From NCBI GenBank assembly GCA_002421665.1, contig DISH01000006.1:84879-148878 (forward strand): a DNA stretch of 64,000 bases, read 5' to 3'. The translations under genes were made by a program, and so were the position numbers. Shown one piece after another: positions 6,493-22,367 of the stretch. The DNA comes from Candidatus Omnitrophica bacterium UBA6215 (GTDB taxonomy: Bacteria > Omnitrophota > Gorgyraeia > Pluralincolimonadales > Pluralincolimonadaceae). The notes beneath the pieces are model-generated. The model had not been told where the DNA came from. It saw nothing but the letters and a program-made list of their open reading frames with translations, and made no database searches. Each line of letters opens with the position of its first letter. The stretch's first letter is position 1.

Positions 6493-6557
6493 ATCATATT
6501 ATTTTGCGGGATAAGCTCGATTATATTATCACAAAAACCCGCATTTGGCAACAGGGT

Positions 6558-7583
6558 CTAACTTATCCATCCCCCGCCTGCCACATCCTGCCCACGGTAA
6601 AAAACAAAAGCCTGGCCCGGGGTTATTGCGTGCTGCGGGCTATCGAAGATGGCCTTTACCTTGCGGGGAGAAAGCGGGATTATCCTGCACGGGGATTTTT
6701 TGTGGTTATACCTTATCTTCGCCAAGGCCCTGAAAGGCTTGCCCGGGTTGTCGATTCCCATCCAGGAAACATCGGTGACGGTCAACTCCCTTGCCTTTAG
6801 ATCCTCCGCCGTGGCCAATACCACCTCGTTCTTAGCGGCATCAAGTTTCACGACATATAGGGGTTTTCCTGCCGCAATCCCCAATCCCTGCCTCTGCCCG
6901 ATAGTATAGAATGCCGTCCCTTTATGGCTTCCCAGACATTGCCCCGACAGGTCCTTTACCCTGCCCGGTTTTATTCCTTTGCACTCCCTCTTCAGGAACC
7001 GCCTGTAATCACCGCCCGCCAGGAAGCAGATATCCTGGCTTTCCCGCGTATGGCCTGGTAAGATCAACCCGGCTTTTGCAGCAACATCCCTGACTTCACC
7101 CTTCGTATATTTGCCTAATGGAAAAAGCAGGCGCGCTAACTGGCGCTGCCTGAGGGCAAAAAGGAAATACGACTGGTCCTTGAACTTATCGACCCCTTCC
7201 CTTATGCGGTAGCGGCCGTTAAGAGGCCGGTACAAGCGTACATAATGGCCCGTAGCCAGTAAACGGGCACCCAGGGACTTTGCCTTATCCAGCAGGATAC
7301 CGAACTTTATCCTGTTGTTGCACATAATGCAGGGGTTGGGTGTCCTGCCATGCAGGTATTCCGAGCAGAAATAACCGACTACGTCGCGCCTGAAAGCCTT
7401 CCGAAGGTCGACAACATGGTGGTCTATCCCAAGCGCCGAGGCGGTCTTGCGCGCATCCGCTGCGCATTGGGTATCCCAAAGCTTCATGGTGATCCCTGTT
7501 ACGTCATAACCTTCCCGTTTCAACAAAAAAGCGGCGACCGATGAATCCACGCCGCCGCTCATAGCGACAACAACCTTCTTCAT
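6558..7583 (-). CDS. mnmA: tRNA-specific 2-thiouridylase MnmA
   Basis: It has the N-terminal PP-loop MKKVVVAMSGGVDSSVAAFLL and the conserved CIMCNNRIKFG. Confidence 0.9.
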   Translation of the reverse strand: MKKVVVAMSGGVDSSVAAFLLKREGYDVTGITMKLWDTQCAADARKTASALGIDHHVVDLRKAFRRDVVGYFCSEYLHGRTPNPCIMCNNRIKFGILLDKAKSLGARLLATGHYVRLYRPLNGRYRIREGVDKFKDQSYFLFALRQRQLARLLFPLGKYTKGEVRDVAAKAGLILPGHTRESQDICFLAGGDYRRFLKRECKGIKPGRVKDLSGQCLGSHKGTAFYTIGQRQGLGIAAGKPLYVVKLDAAKNEVVLATAEDLKARELTVTDVSWMGIDNPGKPFRALAKIRYNHKKSPCRIIPLSPRKVKAIFDSPQHAITPGQAFVFYRGQDVAGGGWIS

Positions 7584-8659
7584 TTTTTCCGCGAACCTCT
7601 ATTGTTATATATGGAATAAACGGCGGCGAGCAGTATTATCAGCGTAAGACCCATCCCTGCAGGATTTAATTTCCGGGATCTTGCCGTAAGCGCTTGCTCA
7701 TTCAAAAGAAAATCATCGCAAGCGAATCTCCATTTAGCGGTCCCGCGATCGGTCTCTTGCGCATTTGTATATGTTATGCGCCCGGGCAGGGTGACGGATA
7801 TGTTAAAAGAATAATCCATAAAGACCGGCCAACCATACACCCCGAAAGAATCCTCGTAATTATCGGCGCTTAATGAACTGCCCAGGTCGGAAAGGGCTTC
7901 ATCTATCCTGCCGTGCACTTTAAGCAGCCTTTCCCTGGTCTTCTTCGGGTCCTGGCCCTTGTTGACAGAACAAATATAGGCAGCGACGGATAACGCAAAG
8001 CTGTCTTCTCCGTATCTTGCTTCGAACTCCTGCTTCTCGGCCTTGAAAAGAGGGTCTTCGCCTTCAAAAACCCTGCGGCCCTTTGACATAAACTCTCTCA
8101 GGAAAAAATCATAATATTGCCGATATATACCGTCCAAGAATGCCTTTATGCCGTCTCTTTGCACGAGGCCGGGAAATTCTTTCTCTATCTCCGAAACCGC
8201 TATATCCAAAGACCGGTCATACCACTGCGAGCAGAACTGTATGGCCTTCCTGCGATCCATACAGTCCCTGAACTTCTCTTCGTATTCATACACTGTGAAC
8301 AATATACCGTTATGTACCTTGAGAGAGAAACTGTTGGACGAAAGGTCCCCGGGATAGAAACCTTTCCTTACATAGTCCGGAGCAAGTTTGTTCATGTCCA
8401 TAAATGAACGTTTTACCTCATAGATATGGACGGGGGGATTGCCCTTCGCATATCTTTCGAGTTTCCACTCACCCGGCCCCGGCATGAGATAATTATTTAC
8501 AAGCTCGTCCTTCTCGCTCGCGCCGTCAGCCGAATAAGTCGTTATCCTGAACCCCGAGCCGTCATCGTTTATCCTTGTAACGGCGGTCATATTTATACGG
8601 CATCCGCAGAATACCAGAACAGGCAGGAAGACCAGCAGGCCATAAACAAAACGTTTCAT
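7580..8659 (-). CDS. Hypothetical lipoprotein with a C-terminal TM helix
   Basis: It has the lipobox-like N-terminus MKRFVYGLLVFLPVLVFCGC and a C-terminal hydrophobic segment GLTLIILLAAVYSIY. I recognised no family. Confidence 0.45.
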   Translation of the reverse strand: MKRFVYGLLVFLPVLVFCGCRINMTAVTRINDDGSGFRITTYSADGASEKDELVNNYLMPGPGEWKLERYAKGNPPVHIYEVKRSFMDMNKLAPDYVRKGFYPGDLSSNSFSLKVHNGILFTVYEYEEKFRDCMDRRKAIQFCSQWYDRSLDIAVSEIEKEFPGLVQRDGIKAFLDGIYRQYYDFFLREFMSKGRRVFEGEDPLFKAEKQEFEARYGEDSFALSVAAYICSVNKGQDPKKTRERLLKVHGRIDEALSDLGSSLSADNYEDSFGVYGWPVFMDYSFNISVTLPGRITYTNAQETDRGTAKWRFACDDFLLNEQALTARSRKLNPAGMGLTLIILLAAVYSIYNNRGSRKK

Positions 8660-10059
8660 GTAAGAGCCTTTAGGTATCTGTCTATCGCGGCAGCGGCCCT
8701 CTTGCCGGCACCCATAGCTGCTATTACGGTGCCTTCGCCCACGGTTATATCCCCTCCGGCAAATACTCCTTTCATAGACGTCATGTAATCCTTGTCTACA
8801 ACCACTTCCCCGTTTTTAGGGTCGGTATTTATGCCCTTGGTGGTCAAGGGTATAAGCGGATTAGGGCCTTGTCCTATCGCTATGATCACGGTATCTACCG
8901 GCATAGTGTATTCAGAACCCTTGACAGGAAGAGGGCGCCGGCGACCGCTGGAATCTGCTTCGCCTAATTCCATCTTCATACAGGTCATACTCCTGACCTC
9001 TCCCTTATCGCTGCCTTCTATGGAAAGGGGCGCCGTCAGGAAGCGGAATTCTATGCCCTCCTCGCCCGCGTGTTCGATCTCAGCCCGCCTGGCCGGGGCC
9101 TCGCGTGCGCTGCGCCGGTAGATTATCATGGCGTCTTTCGCACCGAGACGCTTGGCAACGCGGACGCAATCCATGGCGGTATTGCCCGCTCCGACTACCG
9201 CTACCCTCTCGCCGATCCTTACCGGTGTTTTGTAAACGGGGAACTCATAGGCATGCATAAGGTTGACCCTCGTCAGGAATTCATTCGCCGAGTATACGCC
9301 GTTGAGGTTCTCGCCTGGTATCCCGAGGAAATTGGGAAGCCCCGCTCCCGTTCCAATAAAAACTGCCCTGTAGCCGTCCTTAAAGAGGCCTTCGACGGTT
9401 ATCGTCCTGCCGATAAGTATATTGTACCTTATCTCAACACCGAGAGATTTCACATACTCTGTTTCCCTGTCGAGGATTGTCTTAGGGAGCCTGAATTCAG
9501 GTATGCCGTATCTCAATACGCCGCCGCTTGAAGTAAGCGATTCGAAAAGCGTGACCATATAACCGTATTTAGCCAGGTCGGCGGCCGCGGTCAACCCGGC
9601 AGGACCCGCACCGACTACCGCTACTTTCGCGCCGCGATCTTTCACGGCCGCGGCAACGTTAACGCGATCTCCCTGTCCGGGATGGTCCGCTTCCCAGTCC
9701 GCGACAAAACGCTCCAGGGCGCCAATCGCTATAGGCTCCTTCCTTGCGGCAAGCACACAATTAAACTCGCATTGGATCTCCTGCGGACACACTCTTCCGC
9801 ATATCGCCGGAAGGTTGTTCCTTTCCTTTATCTTCCTGGCTGCGCCGGCGAAATCCCTCTTGGCTATAAGCTCAATGAATCCGGGTATATCGATACCGAC
9901 AGGACAGCCGTTACAGCAGGGCTTCTTCTTACATGACATACAGCGTTTTGCCTCAAGGACCGCCTGCTCCGGCGTAAAACCCAAGGCTACTTCCTTGAAA
10001 TCCCGGCTCCTCCCGGAAGGTTCCCTGCACGGTTGTTTCTGGCGCGGGATATTTGCCAT
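8656..10059 (-). CDS. nfnB: NfnB-like subunit (GltD-like, 4Fe-4S clusters plus FAD/NADPH binding)
   Basis: Cys clusters CMSCKKKPCCNGCPV and CGRVCPQEIQCEFNC are followed by GltD-like Rossmann motifs VAVVGAGPAGL and VAVVGAGNTAMD. It is paired with a PyrK-like subunit. Confidence 0.8.
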   Translation of the reverse strand: MANIPRQKQPCREPSGRSRDFKEVALGFTPEQAVLEAKRCMSCKKKPCCNGCPVGIDIPGFIELIAKRDFAGAARKIKERNNLPAICGRVCPQEIQCEFNCVLAARKEPIAIGALERFVADWEADHPGQGDRVNVAAAVKDRGAKVAVVGAGPAGLTAAADLAKYGYMVTLFESLTSSGGVLRYGIPEFRLPKTILDRETEYVKSLGVEIRYNILIGRTITVEGLFKDGYRAVFIGTGAGLPNFLGIPGENLNGVYSANEFLTRVNLMHAYEFPVYKTPVRIGERVAVVGAGNTAMDCVRVAKRLGAKDAMIIYRRSAREAPARRAEIEHAGEEGIEFRFLTAPLSIEGSDKGEVRSMTCMKMELGEADSSGRRRPLPVKGSEYTMPVDTVIIAIGQGPNPLIPLTTKGINTDPKNGEVVVDKDYMTSMKGVFAGGDITVGEGTVIAAMGAGKRAAAAIDRYLKALT

Positions 10060-10061
10060 GG

Positions 10062-10874
10062 TTAAACGTCCATCGCTTTCTTCTCTTCCCCCAGGAATCT
10101 CTTGTTCCTGAGGAGTAATTCGTCGAAGTCCACCTGGTAGCCGTCGAATTCCGGGCCGTCAACGCAGGAAAAACGGGTCTTGCCCGCAACTGTGCAACGG
10201 CATGACCCGCACATCCCGGTCGCGTCAAGAAGGATCGCGTTAAGGCTTACCGTTATCGGTATCGCTTTTGGACGCGAGGTCTCCGTTACCGCGCGCATCA
10301 TAGGGAGCGGCCCGCAGCAGATTATCCTGTCTATCTTCTCGCCCCTCTTAAAAAGGTTCGCAAGTGCGTCTGTAACCAGGCCCTTATCGCCGTAACTTCC
10401 GTCATCCGTGGTAACGATAACTTCATCGGCAAGGCCCCTGAAGGTCTCCTCGAGTATAATCAGGTCCCTGTTACGCGCCCCTAATATCGTTATAACCCTG
10501 TTACCTGCCTCTTTCAAAGCACGCACTACGGTAAGGAGTTCGGCCGAACCTACTCCGCCGCCTATCATAACGACCGTGCCGAACTTCTTTATCTGACTCG
10601 GGTTCCCAAGCGGACCGAGTACATCCATTATGGAATCGCCGGGATTAAGCGAGCATAAGTCCTTGGTGGACCTCCCGGCTTCCTGGATTATCATGGTAAT
10701 GGTACCCTTATCCTTATCCATATCGCATATAGTAAGGGGTATCCTTTCCGAAAACTCGTCAAGCCTGACAACCACGAATTGCCCGGGTTTTGCCTCCCGT
10801 ACAACCATAGGAGCTTCAACCTTAAGCATGCTTATAGAACCGGCCAAGACCGTCTTTTCTATGACACTGTGCAT
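10062..10874 (-). CDS. nfnA: NfnA-like subunit (PyrK/SudB-like FAD and 2Fe-2S electron-transfer protein)
   Basis: It has the PyrK-like ferredoxin reductase fold and a C-terminal Cys cluster CGSCRCTVAGKTRFSCVDGPEF, and sits immediately upstream of the GltD-like subunit. Confidence 0.8.
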   Translation of the reverse strand: MHSVIEKTVLAGSISMLKVEAPMVVREAKPGQFVVVRLDEFSERIPLTICDMDKDKGTITMIIQEAGRSTKDLCSLNPGDSIMDVLGPLGNPSQIKKFGTVVMIGGGVGSAELLTVVRALKEAGNRVITILGARNRDLIILEETFRGLADEVIVTTDDGSYGDKGLVTDALANLFKRGEKIDRIICCGPLPMMRAVTETSRPKAIPITVSLNAILLDATGMCGSCRCTVAGKTRFSCVDGPEFDGYQVDFDELLLRNKRFLGEEKKAMDV

Positions 10875-10883
10875 CGATCCTGA

Positions 10884-11846
10884 TTACCTCCCGATCTGTT
10901 TACCGTAACCTGTCTCCAGGGCCTTAACGAGGTCCGTAAGGACGGAATTTACCGGGGTCGGAACACCTAGTGCCGCGCCTTCGGCGGCTATAGCCCCGTT
11001 TATATAATCTATCTCCGTCTTCTGGCCGTCGAGCACATCCTGGAGCATAGAACAGGCATTGTCCGAGCTCGAAGAACAGACTGATTCTATCTTCTTTACC
11101 GGGTCTGAATATACCAGACTTATCCGGCGGCGTTTAGCCACCTTGACCGCTTCCATTACGGCCTGTTTCATTACGTTCCTGGTCCATTCATATTTGAACA
11201 GGTCACCGTTCTTGAGGCGGGTCAGGGCACCCAGGGCGTTTATCCCGACGTTGATTATCAGCTTCGACCATATTACTTCTTTTATGTTGTCGGATATCTT
11301 GGTCTCGAATGAAGATTTCTTGAACAAGGCCGATATCTCTTCCAGCCTCCTGCGGGGAATATACCATTTCCTGACATCCTTACGGGCAGCAGGAGTATAC
11401 CATCTGCCTATTATTGTCTCCCCTTTCCCGGCATGCCTGACCTTTCCATCCCCGACATATGTCGAACCGTGCGAAGTGACCCCACCGACAACTTTCTCCG
11501 GCCCTACGATCTCGGCTATAACCTCTTCGTTCCCGAGACCGTTCTGGAGGGTCAGGACGAGGGTATTTTCGCCGATCGAAGCCTTAGCTTCCTTAACGGC
11601 TTCCTCGGTATCGTAGGATTTGACACAGACAATAACAAGATCACAGACCCCTATATCCTTTGCATCGCAGGTGGCCCTTACCTTAGCACTGAACTCCCCG
11701 ATCCCCTCGACCCTTATCCCGCTATTATTGATCTTCTTTGCGCGGTCCTGGACTTTGTCGAGCAGCCAAACATCTTCGCCCGATCTCGCCAAAGAAGCGG
11801 CTACCAGACAACCAAGGGCCCCCGGGCCGATGATCGCTATCTTCAT
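10884..11846 (-). CDS. panE: 2-dehydropantoate 2-reductase (ketopantoate reductase)
   Basis: The N-terminal Rossmann motif MKIAIIGPGALGCLVAASL is followed by an ApbA/PanE-like region. It is adjacent to panB. Confidence 0.85.
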   Translation of the reverse strand: MKIAIIGPGALGCLVAASLARSGEDVWLLDKVQDRAKKINNSGIRVEGIGEFSAKVRATCDAKDIGVCDLVIVCVKSYDTEEAVKEAKASIGENTLVLTLQNGLGNEEVIAEIVGPEKVVGGVTSHGSTYVGDGKVRHAGKGETIIGRWYTPAARKDVRKWYIPRRRLEEISALFKKSSFETKISDNIKEVIWSKLIINVGINALGALTRLKNGDLFKYEWTRNVMKQAVMEAVKVAKRRRISLVYSDPVKKIESVCSSSSDNACSMLQDVLDGQKTEIDYINGAIAAEGAALGVPTPVNSVLTDLVKALETGYGKQIGR

Positions 11847-12703
11847 CTGGTCCTCCTTACGGACTTGATCTTTTTCAGTTCTGATCCGTTCATTGTAAAA
11901 CTATGCTCCTGTGCCGGGAAGTTACCTGACTCCACATCATCCTTATACCTTTTGAAGGCATTAAGCATCTGCGGCCACAGGTCCGCGTATTTCTTCACGA
12001 ACTTCGGCGTAAATTTATCATACAACCCGATCATATCGTTGGTAACTATTACTTGCCCATTGCAATAAGGGCCTGCGCCAATACCTATGGTCGGTATGCC
12101 AATCTTTTCCGTTATAAGCTTCGCCAGCATATCCGGGACACATTCAAGGACAATGGCAAAGCACCCGGCCTTTTCGAGGGCTACAGCGGAATCAATAAGT
12201 TTTGCGGCGCCCCTGGCATCCTTACCCTGGACCCTGAACCCGCCAAGTTGGGCGGCTGTCTGGGGCGTAAGGCCTATATGCCCGAGAACGGGTATCCCGG
12301 CCTTGACCAGGGTTTTCACCGTGCCGGACATCTCCTCTCCGCCTTCGATCTTTACGGCTGTGCACCCGCCTTCTTTTATGAAACGGCCGGCATTCCGCAC
12401 AGTCTCCTTTTCGGCGATATTATAGGTCATGAAAGGCATATCACCTACAAGCAGGGCATATTTTACGCCGCGCCTGACAGCCTTGGCATGATGTATCATC
12501 TCATCCATGGTTACTGGTATCGTGGATTCGTAGCCGAGTACCGTCATGGCAAGCGAATCGCCGACAAGTACCATGTCCAAGCCCGCCTCGTCAATAAGGC
12601 GTCCGGAAGGATAATCATACGCGGTAAGCATGGTTATCTTCCTGCGATCATCCTTTTTCTTCTGAACATCAGGGATGGTCACCTTTCTGCGTTCGGCATT
12701 CAT
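11843..12703 (-). CDS. panB: 3-methyl-2-oxobutanoate hydroxymethyltransferase
   Basis: It has the KITMLTAYDYPSGRLIDEAGLDMVLVGDSLAM signature. Confidence 0.9.
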   Translation of the reverse strand: MNAERRKVTIPDVQKKKDDRRKITMLTAYDYPSGRLIDEAGLDMVLVGDSLAMTVLGYESTIPVTMDEMIHHAKAVRRGVKYALLVGDMPFMTYNIAEKETVRNAGRFIKEGGCTAVKIEGGEEMSGTVKTLVKAGIPVLGHIGLTPQTAAQLGGFRVQGKDARGAAKLIDSAVALEKAGCFAIVLECVPDMLAKLITEKIGIPTIGIGAGPYCNGQVIVTNDMIGLYDKFTPKFVKKYADLWPQMLNAFKRYKDDVESGNFPAQEHSFTMNGSELKKIKSVRRTR

Positions 12704-15129
12704 TGAGCGCTTCCTTTCATAAGGGACTTCACGATATTAACGGCTTCGATAGCGTCACGCGCATAAGCGGAGGCGCCTATCTGCCTGGCAAACGCCTCAT
12801 TAACCACCGCGCCGCCAACCATCGTCTTGAAATTTAATTCTCTCTTCTTCAATTCTTTAATGACGTGCTCCATCTGTATCATCGTGGTGGTCATCAGCGC
12901 GCTCAGTCCTATTATGTCGGCCTTGTTCTTTACCGCTTCCTTGATTATGATATCGGCGGACACGCTCCTGCCAAGATCGAATATCCTGTAACCGTGGTTC
13001 TCGAGCACCGATATGACGATATTCTTGCCTATATCGTGGATATCGCCTTCAACGGTCGCAAAAACGATCGTCCCCTTGTCCTCCTGTTCCCCCGGCCTGA
13101 TATCCCTCTTGAGGCGTCCGAATGCGCGCTGGACCGCCTCCGCCGAAAGTATCACCTGAGGGAGGAAGTACTCCCTCTTGCCGAATTTCTCCCCGACGGT
13201 CTCAAGGGCGGGGATCAATATACCGCCGTTTATCTCCAACGGCGGTATCCCCTGCGCCAGGGCTTCTTCGATATATCCTGCTATATTATCCTTATCTCCG
13301 TAGATCACAGCCTCGGTAAGGAGGGTCCTGACATCTTTCCCATCCCCCGGCTTAGACTTGCAGGACGAGGCAGGAATACGTATGACAGGATTCAACGCTT
13401 CCTTCAGGAATTGTTTTATCCGGGTATCCGTAGCGGCCCTCTTCTTCTTGCGTTTCGCGACCCAGAACATATTGTCGTCGCTCGGGTTGATTATCGCAAG
13501 GTCAAGGCCATAAGAAAGGGCCAATGAGAAGAAATCGGCGTTGATCTTCCTCCTGTTAGGAAGGCCAAATGATATGTTGCTGACACCAAGCGAGCACGAA
13601 AAACCGCTCTTCCTGAGGTCTCTTATAGCTTTCAAGGTCTCTCCCGCCTGCCCGGGTTCCGCCGATATCGCCAATGTAAGCGGGTCCACTATTATATCCT
13701 CTTTACGTATGCCAAGCGCCAGGGCCTTCTTTATTACCGTTGAAGCTATCTTTACGCGTGCCTTGGCGTTCTTCGGTATACCGCACTTATCAAGCGCCAG
13801 CACAAGTACTGCCGCGCCGTATTTCCTGGCCAGCGGGAGCATCGAGGCGATCTTCTCTTTCTCACCGTTAACTGAATTTATCAAGGGCTTGCCTGCTGTT
13901 TCCTTGAGGGCAGCCTCGACAGCGAACGGGCTCGTGCTGTCTATCGATATAGGCGCTTCGCTTACCGCCTGTACGGCTTCCACGGCAGACGCGATCGTAT
14001 CCTGCTCCCGGATGCCGGGAACCCCGACATTGATATCGAGTATATCTGCGCCTTTACGTGACTGTTCTATCGCTTCCCGTCTTATAATAACGTTTTTGCC
14101 CTGCTTTATCTCTTCCTGCAGGTCCTTCCTGCCCGTGGGATTTATCCTCTCGCCTATAATAACAGGCCTTGTTTTGGCATTAAGCTCGATCGTCTTCGTG
14201 CGCGAAGAGAGCCTGAAAGCCGGAATGTATTTCCGGTGTCGCGGCTTCTTTCCGCGTAAAATCCTGCTTACTTCCCTGATATGTTCGGGCGTAGTCCCGC
14301 AACATCCGCCTATCAGATTTACGCCGAGCGCAGCGAACCTGGCCGCATATCCCGCAAATGCCTTGGGAGTCTCGGGAAAATATGTCTTGCCTTCACGCAA
14401 TTCCGGCAAACCTGCATTCGGCTGGCAGGAGATGAACCTGTCAGTCAGAGGGGACATTTCTTTTATCACGTTCAACAATTCTTTCGGCCCGGTAGAACAG
14501 TTGGTGCCGATGATATCCGCACCAAGCGAATTCAGCAGAACGGCAAAAGCGGAAGGAGTAGTGCCGTAGGTACTGCGCTCGCCTCCTTCAAAAGTCATCT
14601 GGGCCTGGATAGGTAACCCGCCTATTTCCTTGGCAGCGATAACCGCCGCCTTAAGTTCCTTTATGTCGGCGAAGGTTTCGAGTATCACGAGATCGCAGCC
14701 GCCTTCCTTAAGTTGTCTTATCTGGTCTTCGAAGGCCTTGACCGCCTCATCGAACGAAAGGTCGCCGAGGGGGCTTATCTGCCTGTCGAGCGGCCCGACC
14801 GAACCGGCTACATATATCTTCCTCCCGCGGCATCCCGAAGCAGCGGACTTGGCTATCCGCGCCGCTTCATAATTGATCCTGTCGGCATCCTTCTCAAGGC
14901 CGTAAGAAGCGAGTTTCAACCTGCTAGCGCCGAACGAATTCGTTTCAATGACATCTGCGCCGGCATCTATATAGCTGCGGTGTATGCTGCCGATCACACC
15001 GGGATCGGAGATATTGAGTTCTTCCGGGCAAGCTCCCGCCTTAAGCGCTCCTGTCTCTTGCAGCACCGTCCCGAGAGCACCGTCGTATATCAGTATTTCA
15101 TTTTTTAGCCTTGCTAATACCTCTTTCAT
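12700..15129 (-). CDS. metH: Cobalamin-dependent methionine synthase core (Hcy-binding, pterin-binding and B12-binding domains), lacking the C-terminal reactivation domain
   Basis: It has the N-terminal S-methyltransferase domain LIYDGALGTVLQ, a pterin-binding domain and a B12 domain with the DxHxxG motif EGDIHDIGKNIV. At 809 aa it is too short to include the AdoMet activation domain. Confidence 0.85.
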   Translation of the reverse strand: MKEVLARLKNEILIYDGALGTVLQETGALKAGACPEELNISDPGVIGSIHRSYIDAGADVIETNSFGASRLKLASYGLEKDADRINYEAARIAKSAASGCRGRKIYVAGSVGPLDRQISPLGDLSFDEAVKAFEDQIRQLKEGGCDLVILETFADIKELKAAVIAAKEIGGLPIQAQMTFEGGERSTYGTTPSAFAVLLNSLGADIIGTNCSTGPKELLNVIKEMSPLTDRFISCQPNAGLPELREGKTYFPETPKAFAGYAARFAALGVNLIGGCCGTTPEHIREVSRILRGKKPRHRKYIPAFRLSSRTKTIELNAKTRPVIIGERINPTGRKDLQEEIKQGKNVIIRREAIEQSRKGADILDINVGVPGIREQDTIASAVEAVQAVSEAPISIDSTSPFAVEAALKETAGKPLINSVNGEKEKIASMLPLARKYGAAVLVLALDKCGIPKNAKARVKIASTVIKKALALGIRKEDIIVDPLTLAISAEPGQAGETLKAIRDLRKSGFSCSLGVSNISFGLPNRRKINADFFSLALSYGLDLAIINPSDDNMFWVAKRKKKRAATDTRIKQFLKEALNPVIRIPASSCKSKPGDGKDVRTLLTEAVIYGDKDNIAGYIEEALAQGIPPLEINGGILIPALETVGEKFGKREYFLPQVILSAEAVQRAFGRLKRDIRPGEQEDKGTIVFATVEGDIHDIGKNIVISVLENHGYRIFDLGRSVSADIIIKEAVKNKADIIGLSALMTTTMIQMEHVIKELKKRELNFKTMVGGAVVNEAFARQIGASAYARDAIEAVNIVKSLMKGSAQ

Positions 15130-15664
15130 ACACTTTCCTTATGGGTTTATGCCCGGCTTTGAGCAGCCCTATGCATGCCGTAACGGATTTTTCCGGCAGC
15201 ATTATGCAACTCTTTGTAGCGCGCACGCCTATCTTCTCCGCTTTTAAAACCTTTAATATCTTCGCCTGGTCAAAGATCGACCAGTCACCGTATCCCGGGC
15301 TGAAACGTGCGATGGTCGAAAAGCCCTCGGAACCGGCATTTTTGGTAACAGCCTTATCGATCGCGTCCGCCAAAGCTTCTGCCGCCTCGGAACCCACGGC
15401 ATCCAAGACTGTCGCCCGTGCTATTTCGCCGCCGCTTACATAAGAATTTATCTTTTCGGGGAGGTCCTTCCCTATCGTGCAGACGAATAACGCTGCCTTC
15501 ACCGACCCCCTGAGATGTTTCGCAAGGGAAGAACTCTTGACCTTAAGCCCGGAAGCGGAAAATCCGATCTTAGGTCCCCTGACGGTTATGTCGTATATAT
15601 TAAATACGGCCTTAGACTCGACCAGCGAAAGCCCTTCTTCCATCACCGAAGAGATGAATGACAT
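15098..15664 (-). CDS. Stand-alone MetH reactivation (AdoMet-binding activation) domain-like protein
   Basis: The 188-aa protein has an FSPGYGDW motif resembling the RxxxGY AdoMet-binding motif of the MetH activation domain, as in stand-alone Thermotoga-type proteins. It overlaps the metH start. Confidence 0.45.
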   Translation of the reverse strand: MSFISSVMEEGLSLVESKAVFNIYDITVRGPKIGFSASGLKVKSSSLAKHLRGSVKAALFVCTIGKDLPEKINSYVSGGEIARATVLDAVGSEAAEALADAIDKAVTKNAGSEGFSTIARFSPGYGDWSIFDQAKILKVLKAEKIGVRATKSCIMLPEKSVTACIGLLKAGHKPIRKVYERGISKAKK

Positions 15665-15773
15665 GACCCTCTTATCCGCCTTCGTCTTGTATTTCGCAAA
15701 CTTAAGGCGGGAAAGGACAAGCTCCGCGGGTATCTTTATAGGGATATTCTTAAGAAAGACTATCTCTCGCCTC

Positions 15774-16646
15774 CTAAAGGCCGGCCTTGTCCAGGATCCG
15801 GGGAACGAGCTTGTTCCAGCCCAGCGACATTATATGAACTCCATGGGCCAGGCCTTTCAAGTCTTTTATGGTGCGCGCTGCGATCTCGACGGCTTTATGT
15901 TGCCTGTCCGGCGCGTTCTCGATCTCTTCAATGAGTTTGTCGGGGATGAATATCCCGGCGACATTCTTGTTCATGAACCGGGCCATATCAGGGGATTTGA
16001 TGAGAATTATCCCGGCGATCACGCAGGTATCGAAACTTTTTACCTTATCCATGAACGCGGCAAAAGCGTCGACATCGTATACTCCCTGGGTCTGGAAGAA
16101 CGAGGCGCCGGCTTTTACCTTCTTCTCGAACTTTATCAGTTCCGGTTCAAGCGGATCGGCGCCGGGGTTAACGACAGCGCCTATGCAAAAACTCGGCACG
16201 CCTTTCAGTTCTTTGCCTGCCATATCCTTCCCGGTTTCAAGCCCTTTAAGCGTATTTATAAGTTGCACGGAATCCAGGTCGAATACAGGTTTTGCTGCAG
16301 GATGATCACCTCTCGACGGATGGTCGCCGGTAAGGACGAGTACATTCTCTATGCCGAGAGCCGCCGCAGATAGGGCATCGGACTGTAGCGCTATCCTGTT
16401 GCGGTCACGGCAGGTAAGCTGGTATATAGGCTCGACGCCTTCTTCCTTCAAAAGTCTGGAGACCGCAAGCGAACCCAGCCTCATTACCGCACTTTGTGAA
16501 TCCGTGACGTTGACGGCATCTACCCTGTCTTTAAGCATGAGGGCCTCTTCAAGGTTAGACTTTACGTCAATGCCTTTCGGCGGTCCGATCTCGGAGGTAA
16601 TTATGAACTTCCTGCTGCTTATCTTTTCTTTTAAGGTCATTATCAT
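15774..16646 (-). CDS. metF: Methylenetetrahydrofolate reductase
   Basis: It has the MetF fold signature across 290 aa and is adjacent to metV. Confidence 0.9.
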   Translation of the reverse strand: MIMTLKEKISSRKFIITSEIGPPKGIDVKSNLEEALMLKDRVDAVNVTDSQSAVMRLGSLAVSRLLKEEGVEPIYQLTCRDRNRIALQSDALSAAALGIENVLVLTGDHPSRGDHPAAKPVFDLDSVQLINTLKGLETGKDMAGKELKGVPSFCIGAVVNPGADPLEPELIKFEKKVKAGASFFQTQGVYDVDAFAAFMDKVKSFDTCVIAGIILIKSPDMARFMNKNVAGIFIPDKLIEEIENAPDRQHKAVEIAARTIKDLKGLAHGVHIMSLGWNKLVPRILDKAGL

Positions 16647-17302
16647 CTCTTCCTGACAGCGTCCACAATTATCCTGCGCGGCCTGATAGAACGTGAATGG
16701 TCCTTTGGCGGCATGATCTTCTTCATATTATCAAGCTTGCCCGCATCCTTGAGCCTGTTATATATCAACAACCACCCGCAGTCGATCTCGGGGTTTACTT
16801 CGCATTTGCCGTCCTTGGCGCCTCCGCATGGGCCGTTCTGGAGCCCCTTAGGGCATAACGCGTTCGGGCAATAACCTCCGGTCATAAAAAGGGTGCAGTC
16901 TCCGCATAATGCGCATACTTCATTGAACCTGCCCGCTCTCTCAGACTGACCCAGGAACAGGGTATCATTAGCCGGAACAACGTTCATGCCTGTCCCGGCA
17001 CAAACTGTATGCGCCCCGTCGCCGCAGCTCATGACAAGCACGGCCCCTGAACCCGATATTGCATCTTTGCCGTCGCGGAAACGTTTCTTTACCTCAAGCA
17101 GGTTGCACGGCGTATCCCAGACTTCGGCGGCGGTCACTTTCTTGCCTTTTCCCTCAAGGACCTGCCGCATGCTCTTTACCTCTTCTTCGCCTCCGGTCTT
17201 GCAAATGGTCGCGCATTGCGTGCATCCGACTATGAATACCTTTTCTATGCCATCGAGGCACTTGAGTATGTCATCTATTGGTTTCTGCCTGGTTATTATC
17301 AT
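16643..17302 (-). CDS. metV: MetV-like Cys-rich partner subunit of MetF (MTHFR C-terminal-like domain)
   Basis: It is Cys-rich and has the CPKGLQNGPCGG motif typical of the MTHFR_C / MetV family. It overlaps metF by 4 bp. Confidence 0.75.
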   Translation of the reverse strand: MIITRQKPIDDILKCLDGIEKVFIVGCTQCATICKTGGEEEVKSMRQVLEGKGKKVTAAEVWDTPCNLLEVKKRFRDGKDAISGSGAVLVMSCGDGAHTVCAGTGMNVVPANDTLFLGQSERAGRFNEVCALCGDCTLFMTGGYCPNALCPKGLQNGPCGGAKDGKCEVNPEIDCGWLLIYNRLKDAGKLDNMKKIMPPKDHSRSIRPRRIIVDAVRKR

Positions 17303-18114
17303 TTCTTCATCTGTTCCTTGAAAAGGGCTATGCAGTTGCGCATAGACATCATGACCGTAAGCGGCCCTACGCCTCCGGGTACGGGCGTAATGAAACCGGC
17401 GCGCTTTGCAGCCGAAGCGAATTCAACGTCGCCTTTGACCTTTCCTGCCACCTTTGTAATGCCTACGTCTACAACGATCGCCCCGTGCTTGATCCAACCG
17501 CCCCTTATGAGACCGGGCTTACCGACTGCAACAACAAGTACCTCGGCACGGCCGATGTGTTCTTTTAACTTCCCGCGGCCTGCAGTCCCGATATGGCAGA
17601 CCGTCACCGTCGCCAGCTTGTCCAGGAGGAACATGGCTATGGGTTTGCCGACAAGTTCGCCGTGACCGACAACAACCGCCTCCCTGCCGAAGAGGCTTAT
17701 CCCGGTCGAGTTTATTATCTCCATAACCGCCGACGCCGTGGGGTTGACCCTTTCAACGTTTTTGGCGGGATCTATATAGTATATGACCTGCTTGAGATTT
17801 ATCGTTTTGGGCACCGGCAGACCGAGCATAACAGCCGTAGTATCCTTATCCCTGTTTAGCTTCTTTATTACCCTGATAAGCTCATCCTGGGAAACGGAAT
17901 TGCAAAGATTGATCTTCCTGTACTTGATACCCAGCTCTCCCGCAAGCTTTTCCTGCGAATTAAGGTATATAGTCGCCGGCTTATGCCCGCCGATCTGGAT
18001 CACTGACAGCATCGGCGTCTTCCCGTATTTTTTCTTGATTGCACAGACTTCCCGTTTTATCTGCGCCTTCATCTTCACCGCCAACCGCTTTCCGTCAAGT
18101 ATCTTCGCGACCAT
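17299..18114 (-). CDS. folD: Bifunctional methylene-THF dehydrogenase / methenyl-THF cyclohydrolase
   Basis: It has the FolD signature across 271 aa (MVAKILDGKRLA... GRSxxVG-like regions). Confidence 0.9.
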   Translation of the reverse strand: MVAKILDGKRLAVKMKAQIKREVCAIKKKYGKTPMLSVIQIGGHKPATIYLNSQEKLAGELGIKYRKINLCNSVSQDELIRVIKKLNRDKDTTAVMLGLPVPKTINLKQVIYYIDPAKNVERVNPTASAVMEIINSTGISLFGREAVVVGHGELVGKPIAMFLLDKLATVTVCHIGTAGRGKLKEHIGRAEVLVVAVGKPGLIRGGWIKHGAIVVDVGITKVAGKVKGDVEFASAAKRAGFITPVPGGVGPLTVMMSMRNCIALFKEQMKK

Positions 18115-18594
18115 CTATCTGCCCGTCCATTTCTTATTGAGCCTGGCAAGATTCTCCGCTGCACCGGCCGAAGCCTTCAGAAACAACTCTGCCGCGCGAA
18201 GGTCCCCGGCAAGATTCCTGTTGCCTATCTTCCTGAGCCTCGGGCAATACTTAAGCGCCTCCTTCGAAAGAGCCGCGATCTCCTCAACGCACAACGTCGC
18301 TTTCTTCATAGAAGAAGCCGACCTTGTCCTCGAATATTGTTCGTATGACCTGGCATCCTTTTCTATGTACGCGGCAAGCTTCGTTTCCAGGCGCTGCGCT
18401 TTTAAAAAAATGGCCTTGGCATCCTTTTCATACATCCTGTATTTTTTCCTGCCTATAGTGAAGTTCGCGACTTTCATGATCAATGCCGCACCGATAGCCC
18501 CGGTCAACGCGGCCGAAGCTCCGCCTCCCGGCACCGGTTTCCTGTCTCCCAATGCCGCAGCAAAAATATCTATCCTGCTTTTGGAGGATATCAT
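18115..18594 (-). CDS. fchA: Methenyl-THF cyclohydrolase / cyclodeaminase-domain protein (FchA-like)
   Basis: It has PVPGGGASAALTGAIGAAL, typical of the FTCD cyclodeaminase domain. It sits between fhs and folD. Confidence 0.7.
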   Translation of the reverse strand: MISSKSRIDIFAAALGDRKPVPGGGASAALTGAIGAALIMKVANFTIGRKKYRMYEKDAKAIFLKAQRLETKLAAYIEKDARSYEQYSRTRSASSMKKATLCVEEIAALSKEALKYCPRLRKIGNRNLAGDLRAAELFLKASAGAAENLARLNKKWTGR

Positions 18595-20273
18595 CAGAAT
18601 AACCCCGATATGTTACCGTCGTCGTCAATATCCACCCTCTCGGCAAGGGGGACCTTCGGCATCCCGGGCATAAGGTTCATCTCGCCTGTAAGCGCGACAA
18701 GGAAACCCGCACCGGCCGAGACCTTGACTTCTTTTACCTTGAGACGCCACCCTGACGGGGCACCTTTCTGCTTGGGATCATCCGTAAAAGAAAGATGCGT
18801 CTTTGCCATATTGACCGGCAACTCGTCATAACCGTTCTCCGTAAGGAACGTGATATCATCTTCCGAAGAACCGACATATACAACACCTTCTGCACCATAG
18901 ACCTCTAAGGCTATCTTTTCTATCTTTTCCTTTATCGAAAGACTGAGTTCATAAAGCGGTTTAAACTTCGAAGGATGCTCCTGCATCGTAGATATGACGG
19001 CCTGGGCAAGTTTTTCCCCTCCTTCTCCGCCTTTTGCCACGACCTCGGTTATTTCTGCAAGCACCCCCTTGCTCCTGCATGATTCTTTTATCCTGTTGAG
19101 CTCATTATCGGTATCGGCCGGGAACCTGTTGATAGCTACGACCGGCCATATCCCGAATCTCTTGACATTCTCTAAATGCCTTTCCAGGTTGCAAAGGCCA
19201 TTGTTAAGAGAAACGAGGTCTTCCTTATCGAGCTCGCCGTCGGCCATTCCTCCGTGCGATTTAAGCGCCCTGGCGCTGACCACTACTACGGCACAATCCG
19301 GTTTGAACTTCCCCTGCCTGGTAACTACGTCGCAGAATTTCTCGAAACCCAGGTCCGTGCCGAACCCGGTCTCGATCACCGCGTAATCGGCGAGTTTAAG
19401 CGCCATCTGGGTAGCAAGCACGCTGTTCGTCCCGTGGGCTATGTTGCCAAAAGGCCCCATATGTATGAAAGCAGGCTGGCTTTCCAGGGTCTGGGCTATA
19501 TTCGGTTTTATTGCGTCTTTCAATATCGCAGCCATCGCACCAACAACTTTAAGTTCGGATGCCGTTACGGGCTTGCCTTTGCTGGTAAACCCTACTATCA
19601 TCCTGCCGAGCCTCTCTTTAAGGTCTTTGTAACCCGTGGTCAAGGCAAGGCAAGCCATGACTTCGGAGGCGGCGGTGATATCGAAACCGTCGCGCCGTTT
19701 TACGGCACCTTCGGCTGCGCCTACCTGTATCTCGCGCAGGCTCTTGTCGCAAAGATCTATCGCCCTTCGCCATAATATCTTCTTCGGGTCAAACTTGAGT
19801 TCGTTGCCCCTTGAGATATGGTTATCGATCGCGGCACTTAAAAGATTATGCGCAGAGGTAACGGCATGGATATCCCCTGTAAAATGGAGGTTTATATCTT
19901 CCATCGGTAAGACTTGGGCATACCCGCCTCCGCAACCTCCTCCTTTCAGGCCCAAAGCCGGCCCCAGGGAGGGTTCTCTCAAACAAAGTATTACGCGCTT
20001 CTTCAGGCGGCCCAACGCCTGGGTAAGGCCTATGGATACGCAGGTTTTGCCTTCGCCGTGCCTCGTCGGGGTTATGGCAGTGACAAGGACAAGTTTGCCG
20101 TCTGGACGGGCCTTAAGCCTCTGCAATACGCCGAGAACGACCTTGGCCTTGTAATTACCGTAAAGCTCGAGCTCATCTGCGTTTAAACCGGCTTTTGTCG
20201 CAACACCCACTATTTGCTTGGGATGCGTCAGCCTGGCTATTTCTGATGTAGAATGCGGTTTTTTAGCGAACAT
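18594..20273 (-). CDS. fhs: Formate--tetrahydrofolate ligase
   Basis: It shows strong FTHFS similarity over 559 aa (e.g. TPTRHGEGKT). Confidence 0.9.
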   Translation of the reverse strand: MFAKKPHSTSEIARLTHPKQIVGVATKAGLNADELELYGNYKAKVVLGVLQRLKARPDGKLVLVTAITPTRHGEGKTCVSIGLTQALGRLKKRVILCLREPSLGPALGLKGGGCGGGYAQVLPMEDINLHFTGDIHAVTSAHNLLSAAIDNHISRGNELKFDPKKILWRRAIDLCDKSLREIQVGAAEGAVKRRDGFDITAASEVMACLALTTGYKDLKERLGRMIVGFTSKGKPVTASELKVVGAMAAILKDAIKPNIAQTLESQPAFIHMGPFGNIAHGTNSVLATQMALKLADYAVIETGFGTDLGFEKFCDVVTRQGKFKPDCAVVVVSARALKSHGGMADGELDKEDLVSLNNGLCNLERHLENVKRFGIWPVVAINRFPADTDNELNRIKESCRSKGVLAEITEVVAKGGEGGEKLAQAVISTMQEHPSKFKPLYELSLSIKEKIEKIALEVYGAEGVVYVGSSEDDITFLTENGYDELPVNMAKTHLSFTDDPKQKGAPSGWRLKVKEVKVSAGAGFLVALTGEMNLMPGMPKVPLAERVDIDDDGNISGLF

Positions 20274-20284
20274 AGTAATTCTTT

Positions 20285-20313
20285 ATTATAGGTAAATATG
20301 CGTGATTTTGCAA
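20285..20313 (-). promoter_or_regulatory. Sigma70-like promoter TTGCAA-N17-TATAAT upstream of fhs, giving a leaderless or very short leader
   Basis: On the minus strand the sequence reads TTGCAAaatcacgcatatttaccTATAAT and ends 11 nt before the fhs ATG. No Shine-Dalgarno sequence lies between them. Confidence 0.35.
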
Positions 20314-20339: not shown

Positions 20340-22367
20340 TTAGTTTATCAGGAAAGTCGTCAGGTTGGAAAACTTGGCCTTGACCCAGATAACGGCGTCT
20401 TCGCGCTCGATGTCATAACGGTAATCGCTGCCTTCTTTAAGCGCCCTTCCGTTCATCTTGACGTTTACCGGATACTTGCCCCAATTCTTGATGATAAAAA
20501 CTGGGTTGAGTACCGTAGAGGATACGATCTTAGGATACATGCTGAACTGGCAACCGTGCCTGAGCCTGTCCGTCTCAAAGACAAGGGCCCTTTGGTAATA
20601 GTCGTTCCCGATGAATTTCGCGTCATCGCTTATCATCGTAATATCACCGGGGTAAAGCCACGAGGAAGTCTTGTCGCGGAGTTCCTGGTCATCCCAGGGC
20701 TTGCTTACACCTACGAGCATCGCCCAAGTCGTAGGGCCTGATACCTTTGGATGCCCGGCTACCGGAAGTAGAGATACATGGCCCGGTTCGCGTATATACC
20801 TGCCGTTTGTCTTGGAAGGCTCTTCGTACGGCATCTTATTGATCGGCCAATGCGAGAAAACAAAGAAATCGCCTTCATATTCATATCCACCCCTCAACTC
20901 TAAAGCCCAATTCTCCCCGTAATGGCCCCACCACTTGCTGAACGGCGCAGGAAAGGTCTTTGGGCAGGCCTCCTCTCCCTGCGCAAAAACTTCAAAAACC
21001 GCGGGCCTGTTCTTGAGATTTATGCGACAAACGGCCTCAGGCCAGTTCTTCGAGCTCTCGTCGAGTTTCGAAGGTCCGGTATTCTTGTTAAGATACCAGG
21101 CATATTCTATCTTGTCCCCTGCAAGGTTGAACAGGGTAACCGCCCTTTGTTCGATAATCTCTGAAGGTTTCACGCCGCCGCGCTTTACCACGGCAAGTTC
21201 GGAGACCTCATTCCAGTCTATTTCGTATCTCGTGGTCAGCACGGGGGTATATGTGACTTTCCTCACTCCCGTGCCGTCCGGGTAGAACGTGAACCACTCA
21301 TCGGCATACGGCCTCTCGACCGGGTCCAGGCCCCACCATTTATATTCGGGATCGGCGAGCACATATCTCCAGTGGACGACAACCCGGGCCTTGTTCGAGA
21401 CCTCTACCTCCGCCTTGGACCATCGCAACAGGCGGTCTCCCATCGGCTCACAGCAGCCTTCCGTGCCGCCGTTCCATATCTCGACGAACTCATAGTACGC
21501 GGCGCATTTGTCGTCTATATGCCACCAAGGTATATACTCCGCTTGGGACCAGAAAACGAACTTTGCCTTGTCATAATAGGGGAACTCCCTGTCAAAGGTC
21601 ACGACTATCGCATCGCCGGAGAAACCCGAAAATGTATAATCCCTCCTGACCGCCTTGAAACCGGTCTCCTTGTCCGACATATCGTCTGCGGGCGTCAAGA
21701 CTGCCATAGGCTTCATGAAAACGGCCCCGGATGGTGCGCTCCCGTCGCTCTTGACGTAAGGGTAAAAATAAAAGCCCCTCTTGTCCGTGTCGGGCAGGGT
21801 AGAGAATTCTATCCATCCCTCTGCCTGTTTCCCGTCAACCTTCCTGGAACAACGGTAATAGAAATGCAGGCAGGATGCTTTTTCGTCTTTTATTATGCGC
21901 AGGGCCGTTGTATCATAACCGAAAGACTCGTTATTAAGAAGAAATTCAAACCTCGGGTTCCACTGGGAATTCTGGGAAATGAAATCTTGCCCGTCCTTTA
22001 TGGCGAATACCCTTACCGTAACATTGCCTTCTTTGTCGGGTTTCCTTTCGATGCCGAAAAAATTGCTCGGGTCGGGCTTTCCCCCGTTATCCTTGAAAAG
22101 GATAATGCCGCACGGCCCCGCTTGGGGCTTGATCCCGGACTGCACTTCAAAATTTCCTCCGAATTTGCTGGGATTATATATTCCAAATAACCCTACCCGG
22201 TCCAATGACAATCGGACGCCCTCTTCGCTCTCGGATACCAAGCCTCCTTCGGTCGCGGGACCGAAATAATACGGTTCCCATTTCTTCTGCGCGTCATCCG
22301 CCGAGGCCCACCACGGCCGTAACAGGATCGAACAAAATATGAATAAGGCAGCTGTTCTCTTCAGCAT
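20340..22367 (-). CDS. Large secreted hypothetical protein (~675 aa); possible carbohydrate-active enzyme
   Basis: The track ORF extends to 22559. The signal peptide MLKRTAALFIFCSILLRPWWASA begins at the internal Met at 22367, and the upstream part overlaps rlmN. I recognised no family. Confidence 0.5.
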   Translation of the reverse strand: MLKRTAALFIFCSILLRPWWASADDAQKKWEPYYFGPATEGGLVSESEEGVRLSLDRVGLFGIYNPSKFGGNFEVQSGIKPQAGPCGIILFKDNGGKPDPSNFFGIERKPDKEGNVTVRVFAIKDGQDFISQNSQWNPRFEFLLNNESFGYDTTALRIIKDEKASCLHFYYRCSRKVDGKQAEGWIEFSTLPDTDKRGFYFYPYVKSDGSAPSGAVFMKPMAVLTPADDMSDKETGFKAVRRDYTFSGFSGDAIVVTFDREFPYYDKAKFVFWSQAEYIPWWHIDDKCAAYYEFVEIWNGGTEGCCEPMGDRLLRWSKAEVEVSNKARVVVHWRYVLADPEYKWWGLDPVERPYADEWFTFYPDGTGVRKVTYTPVLTTRYEIDWNEVSELAVVKRGGVKPSEIIEQRAVTLFNLAGDKIEYAWYLNKNTGPSKLDESSKNWPEAVCRINLKNRPAVFEVFAQGEEACPKTFPAPFSKWWGHYGENWALELRGGYEYEGDFFVFSHWPINKMPYEEPSKTNGRYIREPGHVSLLPVAGHPKVSGPTTWAMLVGVSKPWDDQELRDKTSSWLYPGDITMISDDAKFIGNDYYQRALVFETDRLRHGCQFSMYPKIVSSTVLNPVFIIKNWGKYPVNVKMNGRALKEGSDYRYDIEREDAVIWVKAKFSNLTTFLIN

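Follow-up and report, generated by a model that had tools for sequence, protein, structure and literature searches.

The 64,000-nt window examined here (the whole stretch from position 84,879 to 148,878 of contig DISH01000006.1 of the Omnitrophota bacterium UBA6215, family Pluralincolimonadaceae) carries on its minus strand a run of 13 genes in the order fhs, fchA-like, folD, metV, metF, a gene for a stand-alone methionine synthase (MetH) reactivation protein, metH, panB, panE, nfnA, nfnB, a lipoprotein-like gene and mnmA. We consider it probable that this run represents a single-promoter, translationally coupled anabolic operon, which would supply folate-bound one-carbon (C1) units at every oxidation level to biosynthesis. 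The best reading of the locus is an anabolic one, as both C1 consumers encoded within the operon, MetH and PanB, are biosynthetic, while the direction of the flux, formate as its source and the electron donors are what we infer. According to this proposal Fhs would load formate onto tetrahydrofolate (THF) at the expense of ATP to yield 10-formyl-THF, the FchA-like protein would convert the latter to methenyl-THF by ring closure, and a variant FolD would act as the dehydrogenase producing methylene-THF. PanB and PanE would divert a portion of the methylene-THF towards ketopantoate and pantoate, with the remainder being reduced by MetVF to methyl-THF, from which a four-domain MetH would methylate homocysteine to methionine. 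Oxidised MetH cobalamin would be repaired in trans by a 221-aa S-adenosylmethionine (AdoMet)-binding protein, as is done by TM0269 for TM0268, and NfnAB would balance NADPH, NADH and ferredoxin for the reductive steps.

Gene families were called by Pfam and NCBIfam profile searches, supplemented for selected proteins with sequence matches to PDB entries, and the features of the locus are as follows.
20285-20313, minus strand: predicted sigma-70-type promoter, TTGCAA-17-TATAAT, with 10/12 consensus matches.
18594-20273, minus strand: fhs, formate--tetrahydrofolate ligase, 559 aa (PF01268, 789 bits; NF010030, 778 bits, cut-off 652).
18115-18594, minus strand: fchA-like gene, 159 aa, FTCD_C family, presumed methenyl-THF cyclohydrolase (PF04961, 100 bits).
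17299-18114, minus strand: folD variant, 271 aa, with both THF_DHG_CYH Pfam domains.
16643-17302, minus strand: metV, Cys-rich predicted Fe-S subunit of methylene-THF reductase, 219 aa with 15 Cys (PF12225, 118 bits).
15774-16646, minus strand: metF, catalytic subunit of methylene-THF reductase, 290 aa (PF02219, 147 bits).
15761-15775, minus strand: proposed non-canonical start, consisting of AGGAGG (15775-15770), a 6-nt spacer and ATA (15763-15761), conserved across lineages.
15098-15763, minus strand: gene for the MetH reactivation (AdoMet-binding) protein, approximately 221 aa (PF02965, Met_synt_B12; 1J6R profile match).
12700-15129, minus strand: metH core, 809 aa, with the Pfam domains S-methyl_trans, Pterin_bind, B12-binding_2 and B12-binding.
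11843-12703, minus strand: panB, ketopantoate hydroxymethyltransferase, which uses 5,10-methylene-THF (TIGR00222, 346 bits).
10884-11846, minus strand: panE, 2-dehydropantoate 2-reductase (TIGR00745, 287 bits).
10062-10874, minus strand: nfnA, small subunit of NADH-dependent ferredoxin:NADP oxidoreductase (5JCA_S, 5e-90; 4YLF_A, 2e-79).
8656-10059, minus strand: nfnB, large subunit of the same enzyme (4YLF_B, 5.4e-163).
7580-8659, minus strand: gene of conserved position for a 359-aa protein with a lipoprotein-like N-terminal signal (…LVFCGC) and a C-terminal hydrophobic segment.
6558-7583, minus strand: mnmA, tRNA 2-thiouridine synthase, with which the packed unit ends (NF001138, 408 bits).
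6538-6555, minus strand: weak terminator-like hairpin and T-run just 3' of mnmA, not above chance when taken alone.

The coordinates and family matches bear out the initial annotation in that the genes from fhs to nfnAB are present, co-oriented and tightly packed, with panB, panE and nfnAB directly following metH. The extent of 12700-20313 given there does hold these genes from fhs to metH, but the packed unit is longer, continuing through nfnAB and the lipoprotein-like gene to mnmA, and thus from 20313 to 6558. At every junction in this run the genes either overlap, by 1, 4 or 32 nt, or lie 0-10 nt apart; overlaps of 4 bp join folD to metV, metV to metF, metH to panB and panB to panE, and those between fhs and the fchA-like gene and between the reactivation gene and metH measure 1 nt and 32 nt, respectively. 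The 359-aa gene overlaps both nfnB and mnmA by 4 bp and is kept at the same position in relatives; family searches with its product gave no match, and it is probably co-transcribed with the operon and functionally unrelated to it. The hairpin at 6538-6555 is a possible operon end.

The same gene order was found in six other Omnitrophota lineages (L005, L006, L007, L085, L087 and L088/L089), with approximately 60-90% protein identity where this was measured. L007 corresponds to assembly GCA_903889135.1, which is placed by Seymour et al. (2023), in their treatment of the group, in the genus Pluralincolimonas (Pluralincolimonadaceae, GTDB o__UBA6215, f__UBA6215), and another homologue (P0009) comes from the genus namesake genome 2-02-FULL-50-19; all named homologues belong to Candidatus Omnitrophota. 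In L006, L087 and L088/L089 panE is absent and panB is directly followed by nfnA, suggesting that PanE is dispensable at this operon position.

The initial annotation had taken the locus as a sign of a C1- and folate-centred metabolism, possibly formate-utilising, and this part of the proposal is upheld; its suggestion that the organism might be acetogenic is not, given the anabolic MetH and PanB downstream, the lack of genes for carbon monoxide dehydrogenase/acetyl-CoA synthase (CODH/ACS) in the window and the description of the genus by Seymour et al. (2023). All methyl-branch enzymes of the Wood-Ljungdahl pathway are represented, namely Fhs, cyclohydrolase, dehydrogenase and methylene-THF reductase (MTHFR), whereas profile scans of the 64 kb returned no gene for CODH/ACS, AcsE or the corrinoid iron-sulfur protein (CFeSP), and AcsE, AcsCD and AcsB, like any other carbonyl-branch gene, were likewise absent within 10 kb either side of the operon in the six related lineages. 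Formate dehydrogenase was not found in the window by the same scans, and neither glyA nor glycine-cleavage genes were found in the operon or the window. The order fhs-fchA-folD-metV-metF, which is also that of acetogen clusters such as those of Clostridium ljungdahlii and Acetobacterium woodii, would suit the methyl branch of a working Wood-Ljungdahl pathway of which AcsE, CFeSP and ACS (with or without CODH) are encoded elsewhere, methyl-THF then being passed to both acetyl-CoA and MetH. We regard such an arrangement as rather unlikely, even though work on acetogen reductases has dealt with the MetVF type (PMC8760232) and formate-fed Wood-Ljungdahl pathways are reported, in the metabolic overview of Seymour et al. 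(2023), for many Gorgyraia and Velamenicoccia. The slot behind metF is here occupied by the reactivation gene, metH, panB, panE and nfnAB instead of carbonyl-branch genes, and for the genus Pluralincolimonas, to which relatives belong, the published description gives 'no genes for acetogenesis', the family of this genus not being among those listed in that overview with a partial or complete pathway (Seymour et al. 2023). The same overview credits Pluralincolimonadales with an ADP-forming acetyl-CoA synthetase, complex I and an F-type ATPase, and reports acetate kinase and phosphotransacetylase as lacking; for Pluralincolimonas itself, complexes I and V and also an ATP/ADP translocase are described (Seymour et al. 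2023). C1 metabolism is not covered in a 2026 preprint on complete Omnitrophota genomes. Context and literature together point to the carbonyl branch being absent from the genome.

Support for a Wood-Ljungdahl connection is provided by two more distant Omnitrophota loci, L090 and L091, whose FolD is approximately 51% identical to that of the window and which share with its operon a trmD-rplS-rnhB neighbourhood. In these, the genes fhs-FTCD_C-folD-…-metF are directly followed by cooC-cooS-…-acsB or by acsB alone, at the position where the window lineage has the reactivation gene, metH, panB, (panE) and nfnAB, and at least 120 Omnitrophota AcsB clusters were recovered with the AcsB of L091 as query. 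Of the 120 best clusters, in a list reaching down to 70% identity, none is located on a contig matching in length the large contigs known to bear this operon, which is weak evidence against a carbonyl branch in its lineage. As acsB and cooS follow the same block in other Omnitrophota and AcsB is common in the phylum, an acetyl-CoA-pathway ancestry of the methyl-branch block in Omnitrophota is indicated. In these loci (L090, 7796-20861; L091, 7739-15458) the neighbouring genes read cooC-cooS-ferredoxin-Pyr_redox-acsB, or acsB alone, with metV absent from both, and several Omnitrophota AcsB proteins (P0286, P0337, P0350 and P0355) are fused to a Pyr_redox_2 domain, giving a length of approximately 1028 aa.

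Fhs, FchA and FolD catalyse reversible reactions, and the folate steps might thus run mainly in the oxidative direction, from serine- or glycine-derived C1 units to formate with a gain of ATP at Fhs and a side stream to methionine and pantoate. This alternative, which would draw further support from the replacement of R173 and S197 in FolD (suggestive of an NAD-linked, catabolic-style dehydrogenase) and from the ability of NfnAB to re-route reducing equivalents, appears unlikely to us: fhs, the first and promoter-proximal gene, is translated together with the strongly reductive MetVF and two biosynthetic enzymes that consume C1 units, and the serine and glycine genes that would feed such a flux are those missing from operon and window. 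In addition, Seymour et al. (2023), in discussing pathway-bearing members of the phylum, interpret their lack of a formate dehydrogenase as formate uptake into the methyl branch.

The proposed operon also contains a gene whose start appears to have been overlooked by gene callers. The initial annotation had described a separate 188-aa protein with an FSPGYGDW motif as the reactivation domain missing from MetH, and both its identity and its motif hold: the protein matches the Met_synt_B12 hidden Markov model (PF02965), which had been named as the check, at 29.4 bits against a cut-off of 25, and matches PDB entry 1J6R (TM0269) at E=7.7e-14. The R, S, G and Y residues of the RFSPGYGDW motif are invariant in 27 homologues, and the motif aligns with RISPGYGD of 1J6R and RPAPGY of 1MSK; RxxPGY(G) is presumably the AdoMet-binding site, as in E. 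coli MetH. The length of 188 aa does not hold, as the ATG-started open reading frame (ORF) at 15098-15664 is truncated with respect to a protein of approximately 221 aa. Homologues carry an N-terminal stretch (…IKIP…VLSRLKFAKYKT…) that is missing from the 188-aa ORF and that is encoded in frame, over 33 codons, directly 5' of the ATG, with no ATG, GTG or TTG ahead of it in the window. The proposed start is an ATA codon in the window and in L085, and ATC in L005, L006, L007, L087 and L088; AGGAG lies 6-7 nt upstream in all seven lineages, in four of them an in-frame stop is located only four codons upstream, and the first canonical start is found 15 to at least 39 codons downstream. In the distant Omnitrophota L008 an ATG occupies the homologous start position. 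No other gene in a scan of all window genes displayed a long open stretch lacking a canonical start.

The 33 upstream codons are shown to be translated, as differences among the seven lineages fall almost only at third codon positions (33, 24 and 251 at positions 1, 2 and 3, respectively, with 220 synonymous as compared to 64 non-synonymous codon differences), and to form part of the fold, since a profile that includes the extension gives a full-length match to TM0269 (1J6R; E=1.6e-32), in which positions 5-208 of the 212 in the profile are paired with residues 17-213 of the 214 in the chain. An RNA element in what had appeared as a 109-nt gap between metF and the reactivation gene was considered and rejected, as an Rfam scan with gathering thresholds gave 0 matches in the whole window and the 'gap' proved to be coding. 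A fusion of MetF with the reactivation protein by read-through or frameshifting was likewise dismissed: the TAG stop of metF is in frame with the reactivation gene in L006, L007, L087 and L088 but lies in another frame in L005, L085 and the window, so that no single recoding mechanism fits. This TAG (15776-15774) overlaps the AGGAGG Shine-Dalgarno sequence of the reactivation gene. Initiation at AUA and AUC reaches 1-2% of that at AUG in E. coli (10.1101/063800), and we infer that the AUA-started protein would be made at a low level and coupled to termination of metF, which would suit a repair factor that is needed occasionally.

These findings also bear on the sceptical view that the locus displays nothing beyond an inherited synteny of housekeeping genes, with no functional unit and with the 188-aa protein initiated at ATG as the true product. 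The conserved order does include rnhB, rlmN, the lipoprotein gene, mnmA and tilS, and gene callers and the NCBI annotation do begin at downstream canonical codons, giving annotated homologue lengths of 142-209 aa. Nevertheless, such a view is highly improbable, as the 13 genes are joined by the short overlaps and gaps given above behind a single conserved promoter, the upstream codons show the third-position bias of coding sequence and can be aligned to the TM0269 crystal-structure sequence at its N-terminus, and the called starts vary among lineages with the chance position of a canonical codon.

The sequence TTGCAA-17-TATAAT at 20313-20285 is the top promoter match on the minus strand of the region, in which 23 promoter-like matches were observed as compared to 11 expected by chance, so that one match alone is not significant. 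It is its conservation which makes the promoter credible: six Omnitrophota lineages share a -35 box of the form TTGCAA or TTGACG and a perfect TATAAT, and in each of them the distance to the fhs ATG is 11 nt, in agreement with the near-consensus promoter noted ahead of fhs by the initial annotation, albeit on grounds of conservation rather than of a single match. No Shine-Dalgarno sequence precedes fhs in the six lineages compared, and the first ten fhs codons (N-terminus MFAKKPHSTS) show only synonymous changes across lineages. With 11 nt between the end of the -10 box and the ATG, the fhs mRNA is probably nearly leaderless.

The methionine synthase encoded in the operon is split, as had been claimed: a four-domain core is accompanied by the reactivation domain on a separate, adjacent ORF. 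The 809-aa core lacks the activation domain PF02965, and its alignment to TIGR02082 covers model positions 2-860 of 1182. Methionine synthases are recognised by Zn-binding Cys residues in the homocysteine domain and by DxHxxG...SxL...GG in the B12 domain, and the core contains NCSTGP, GGCCGTTPEH, EGDIHDIGKN (DxHxxG), LSALMTTT (SxL) and MVGGAV, and thereby the motifs of a cobalamin-dependent methionine synthase. Relatives of the stand-alone reactivation protein were found as at least 580 stretches in GTDB species representatives. Among the best 80 loci, which span Negativicutes, Elusimicrobia, Aminicenantes, Clostridia, Spirochaetota and others, metH follows the reactivation gene directly in 50 and directly precedes it in 4. 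Within 10 kb these 80 loci contain metF (13/80), metV (4/80), fhs (3/80) and panB (4/80) in few cases, which suggests that the complete arrangement is specific to this lineage. Adjacent metH is lacking in 26 of the 80, and the neighbours of the reactivation gene in one locus, L033, encode a methionine aminopeptidase, QueC and a solute-binding protein.

The initial annotation had also assigned MetV and MetF as a two-subunit, acetogen-type MTHFR, and the adjacent genes match PF12225 (the MTHFR C-terminal family, the check proposed for MetV) and PF02219, respectively. RnfC2 and HdrCBA-MvhD families are not encoded beside metVF, and no Rnf or Hdr family was returned by profile scans of the window. 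Type II MetVF is defined as MetV and MetF only, without rnfC2 (type III) or hdrCBA-mvhD (type IV) nearby, and is reported to hold two [4Fe-4S] clusters in MetV and a flavin in MetF, and to accept electrons in vitro from ferredoxin and not from NAD(P)H (PMC8760232). By this definition the MetVF of the operon is classified from its gene context as type II, since rnfC2 and hdr genes are not found nearby. Which donor supplies type II MetVF with electrons in vivo is still being asked for acetogens (PMC8760232), a question on which the presence of MetVF and NfnAB in one operon bears. NfnAB is recognised here by a small FAD/[2Fe-2S] subunit and a large GltD-like subunit, which are encoded adjacently and display full-length homology to NfnAB of Thermotoga maritima.

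The enzymes of the steps between Fhs and MetVF depart from the familiar forms. The fchA-like product scores 72 bits with the NCBIfam FchA equivalog (cut-off 275), of which model positions 5-86 of 207 are covered. FolD matches solved FolD structures (human DC301, 1A4I; E. coli, 1B0A) at 1e-51, and alignment to DC301, whose numbering is used here, revealed the substitutions K56Q, Q100G, D125E, R173H and S197I and the deletion of a 16-residue loop after D125, with Y52, H196, G273 and G276 retained. Both domains of a bifunctional FolD are thus present and the K56/Q100 catalytic pair is not kept; of the NADP 2'-phosphate ligands R173 and S197 are replaced and H196 is kept. Among 121 aligned FolD sequences (that of the window and its 120 nearest homologues) Gln is found at K56 in 120, and K56Q, D125E, R173H and S197I are nearly invariant, while Q100G and the loop deletion are confined to the clade of the window protein (271-273 aa). 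In human FolD, replacement of K56 leads to loss of the cyclohydrolase activity while the dehydrogenase activity is kept. K56 and Q100 constitute the catalytic pair of the human enzyme, D125 is a pterin ligand and R173, H196 and S197 form the NADP 2'-phosphate site (PMC3368264). The variant FolD is therefore probably a dehydrogenase only, and possibly NAD-linked. An FTCD_C cyclohydrolase-like gene adjoins folD in every locus examined, and a dehydrogenase-only FolD would explain the presence of this separate FchA-like gene.

Several points weigh against the anabolic operon as proposed. The reversibility of the steps between formate and methylene-THF means that flux could run from serine or glycine to formate; the carbonyl branch could be encoded outside the 64-kb window; the methyl-branch block has an acetyl-CoA-pathway ancestry in the phylum; the link to Pluralincolimonadaceae as drawn here rests on similarity to, and synteny with, relatives; the conserved gene order, which reaches unrelated genes, may in part be plain lineage synteny; and the AUA start, the promoter and the operon boundaries are predictions made from sequence. 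A fuller evolutionary account would regard the operon as an ancestral Wood-Ljungdahl locus which, in a small-genome and possibly host-dependent lineage, lost the carbonyl branch and was re-wired for formate-scavenging biosynthesis, with a cyclohydrolase-dead, probably NAD-linked 'Q-type' FolD obligatorily paired to FchA, a reactivation subunit throttled by its AUA/AUC start and its coupling to metF termination, and NfnAB as a possible physiological supplier of electrons to the type II MetVF. As a whole this account is speculative, and we would put it forward as an unlikely scenario.

As regards the surroundings of the operon, the minus strand holds all credible genes of the 64 kb, and each 2-kb bin has a negative GC skew, which represents an unusually strict co-orientation. 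The GC content of the window is approximately 51%, and a value of 51.75% is given for the type species of Pluralincolimonas in its description (Seymour et al. 2023). Identical sequence is present in the JGI metagenome 3300001592 and in the Logan assemblies of SRR942928 and SRR943317. In the JGI copy (L002, Draft_10000041) two ORFs stand in place of each of fhs, folD, nfnB, mnmA and a GH2-like gene; these genes are intact in the other assemblies, and the splits most likely reflect assembly or sequencing frameshifts rather than pseudogenes. A tRNA-Met(CAT) with an encoded CCA end (6416-6492, minus strand; ARAGORN match) is located between mnmA and a 197-aa gene, approximately 600 nt upstream of tilS (4408-5796), and could be a lysidine-modified tRNA-Ile2. 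Directly upstream of the operon promoter lies the gene for a 675-aa protein (20340-22367, minus strand; 739 aa if read from an upstream TTG), which has no match in Pfam or NCBIfam and keeps its position in the related loci that reach that far (L001, L005, L085 and L088), with the exception of L087; identity is 70% in L005. Further away, a type IV pilus/type II secretion system (T2SS)-like cluster (37434-57856, minus strand) encodes two tandem secretins, a PilM-PilN fusion, a T2SS-G-type pseudopilin, T2SS-F and two T2SS-E ATPases, along with large proteins without or with a weak family match (397, 837 and 951 aa, the last with a PA14 domain, and a 299-aa beta-helix protein), in agreement with the pilus systems reported for Omnitrophota. 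The dihydropteroate synthase gene folP (1301-2500, minus strand) specifies an N-terminal extension of approximately 135 aa without a family match, the DHPS domain corresponding to residues 139-395 of 399.

Split MetH, MetVF, NfnAB and the methyl-branch genes of Omnitrophota have already been described, the last in the metabolic survey of Seymour et al. (2023). We found no description of a methyl branch wired to metH, panBE and nfnAB, of a conserved AUA/AUC start of the reactivation gene, of a conserved near-leaderless fhs promoter, or of a lysine-less FolD subfamily paired with FchA. These features are refinements, not a new kind of system, and leave the major concepts unchanged. They do have practical consequences, as fhs-fchA-folD-metVF clusters are routinely scored as the Wood-Ljungdahl methyl branch and thence as acetogenesis, whereas the same block here would serve the synthesis of methionine and pantoate, in a lineage that the literature describes as non-acetogenic, so that the cluster alone is no evidence of acetogenesis. 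The MetH reactivation gene appears to be mis-called in all seven lineages, by the number of codons given above, because it starts with AUA or AUC, and the FolD subfamily without the catalytic lysine is a candidate monofunctional NAD-linked methylene-THF dehydrogenase.

When compared to known systems, the operon shares with the Wood-Ljungdahl methyl-branch clusters of acetogens and of the Omnitrophota L090 and L091 the order fhs-fchA-folD-(metV)-metF and the lack of an adjacent formate dehydrogenase; it differs from them in continuing with the reactivation gene and metH, panB, panE and nfnAB, and not with genes for AcsE, CFeSP, ACS or CODH, and from L090 and L091 also in its possession of metV. 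FolD resembles the bifunctional enzymes of human (1A4I) and E. coli (1B0A) in both domains and in Y52, H196, G273 and G276, whereas the subfamily of at least 121 sequences to which it belongs carries K56Q, D125E, R173H and S197I, with Q100G and the loop loss added in the clade of the window. The adjacent, overlapping metV and metF are arranged as in the type II MetVF of C. ljungdahlii, C. aceticum, E. callanderi and T. kivui (PMC8760232); the organism is, however, probably no acetogen, and methyl-THF would be passed to a MetH encoded in the same operon. NfnAB, which is part of no described MetVF gene cluster, consists of the same two subunits as NfnAB of T. maritima (4YLF) and NfnI of Pyrococcus furiosus (5JCA), with strong full-length matches, and its genomic setting in an operon for folate C1 metabolism, methionine and pantoate is the only difference, the window enzyme being known from sequence. 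The closest counterpart of the split MetH is found in T. maritima, where MetH (TM0268) requires the separate TM0269 for its reactivation (Huang et al. 2007, as cited in PMC10293825): the four-domain core, the adjacent homologue of the reactivation domain and the RxxPGYG motif are the same. TM0269 is described in that account as being downstream of TM0268, whereas here the small gene precedes metH with an overlap of 32 nt and would be translated, with a reactivation role predicted from homology, from a conserved AUA/AUC start coupled to the metF stop.

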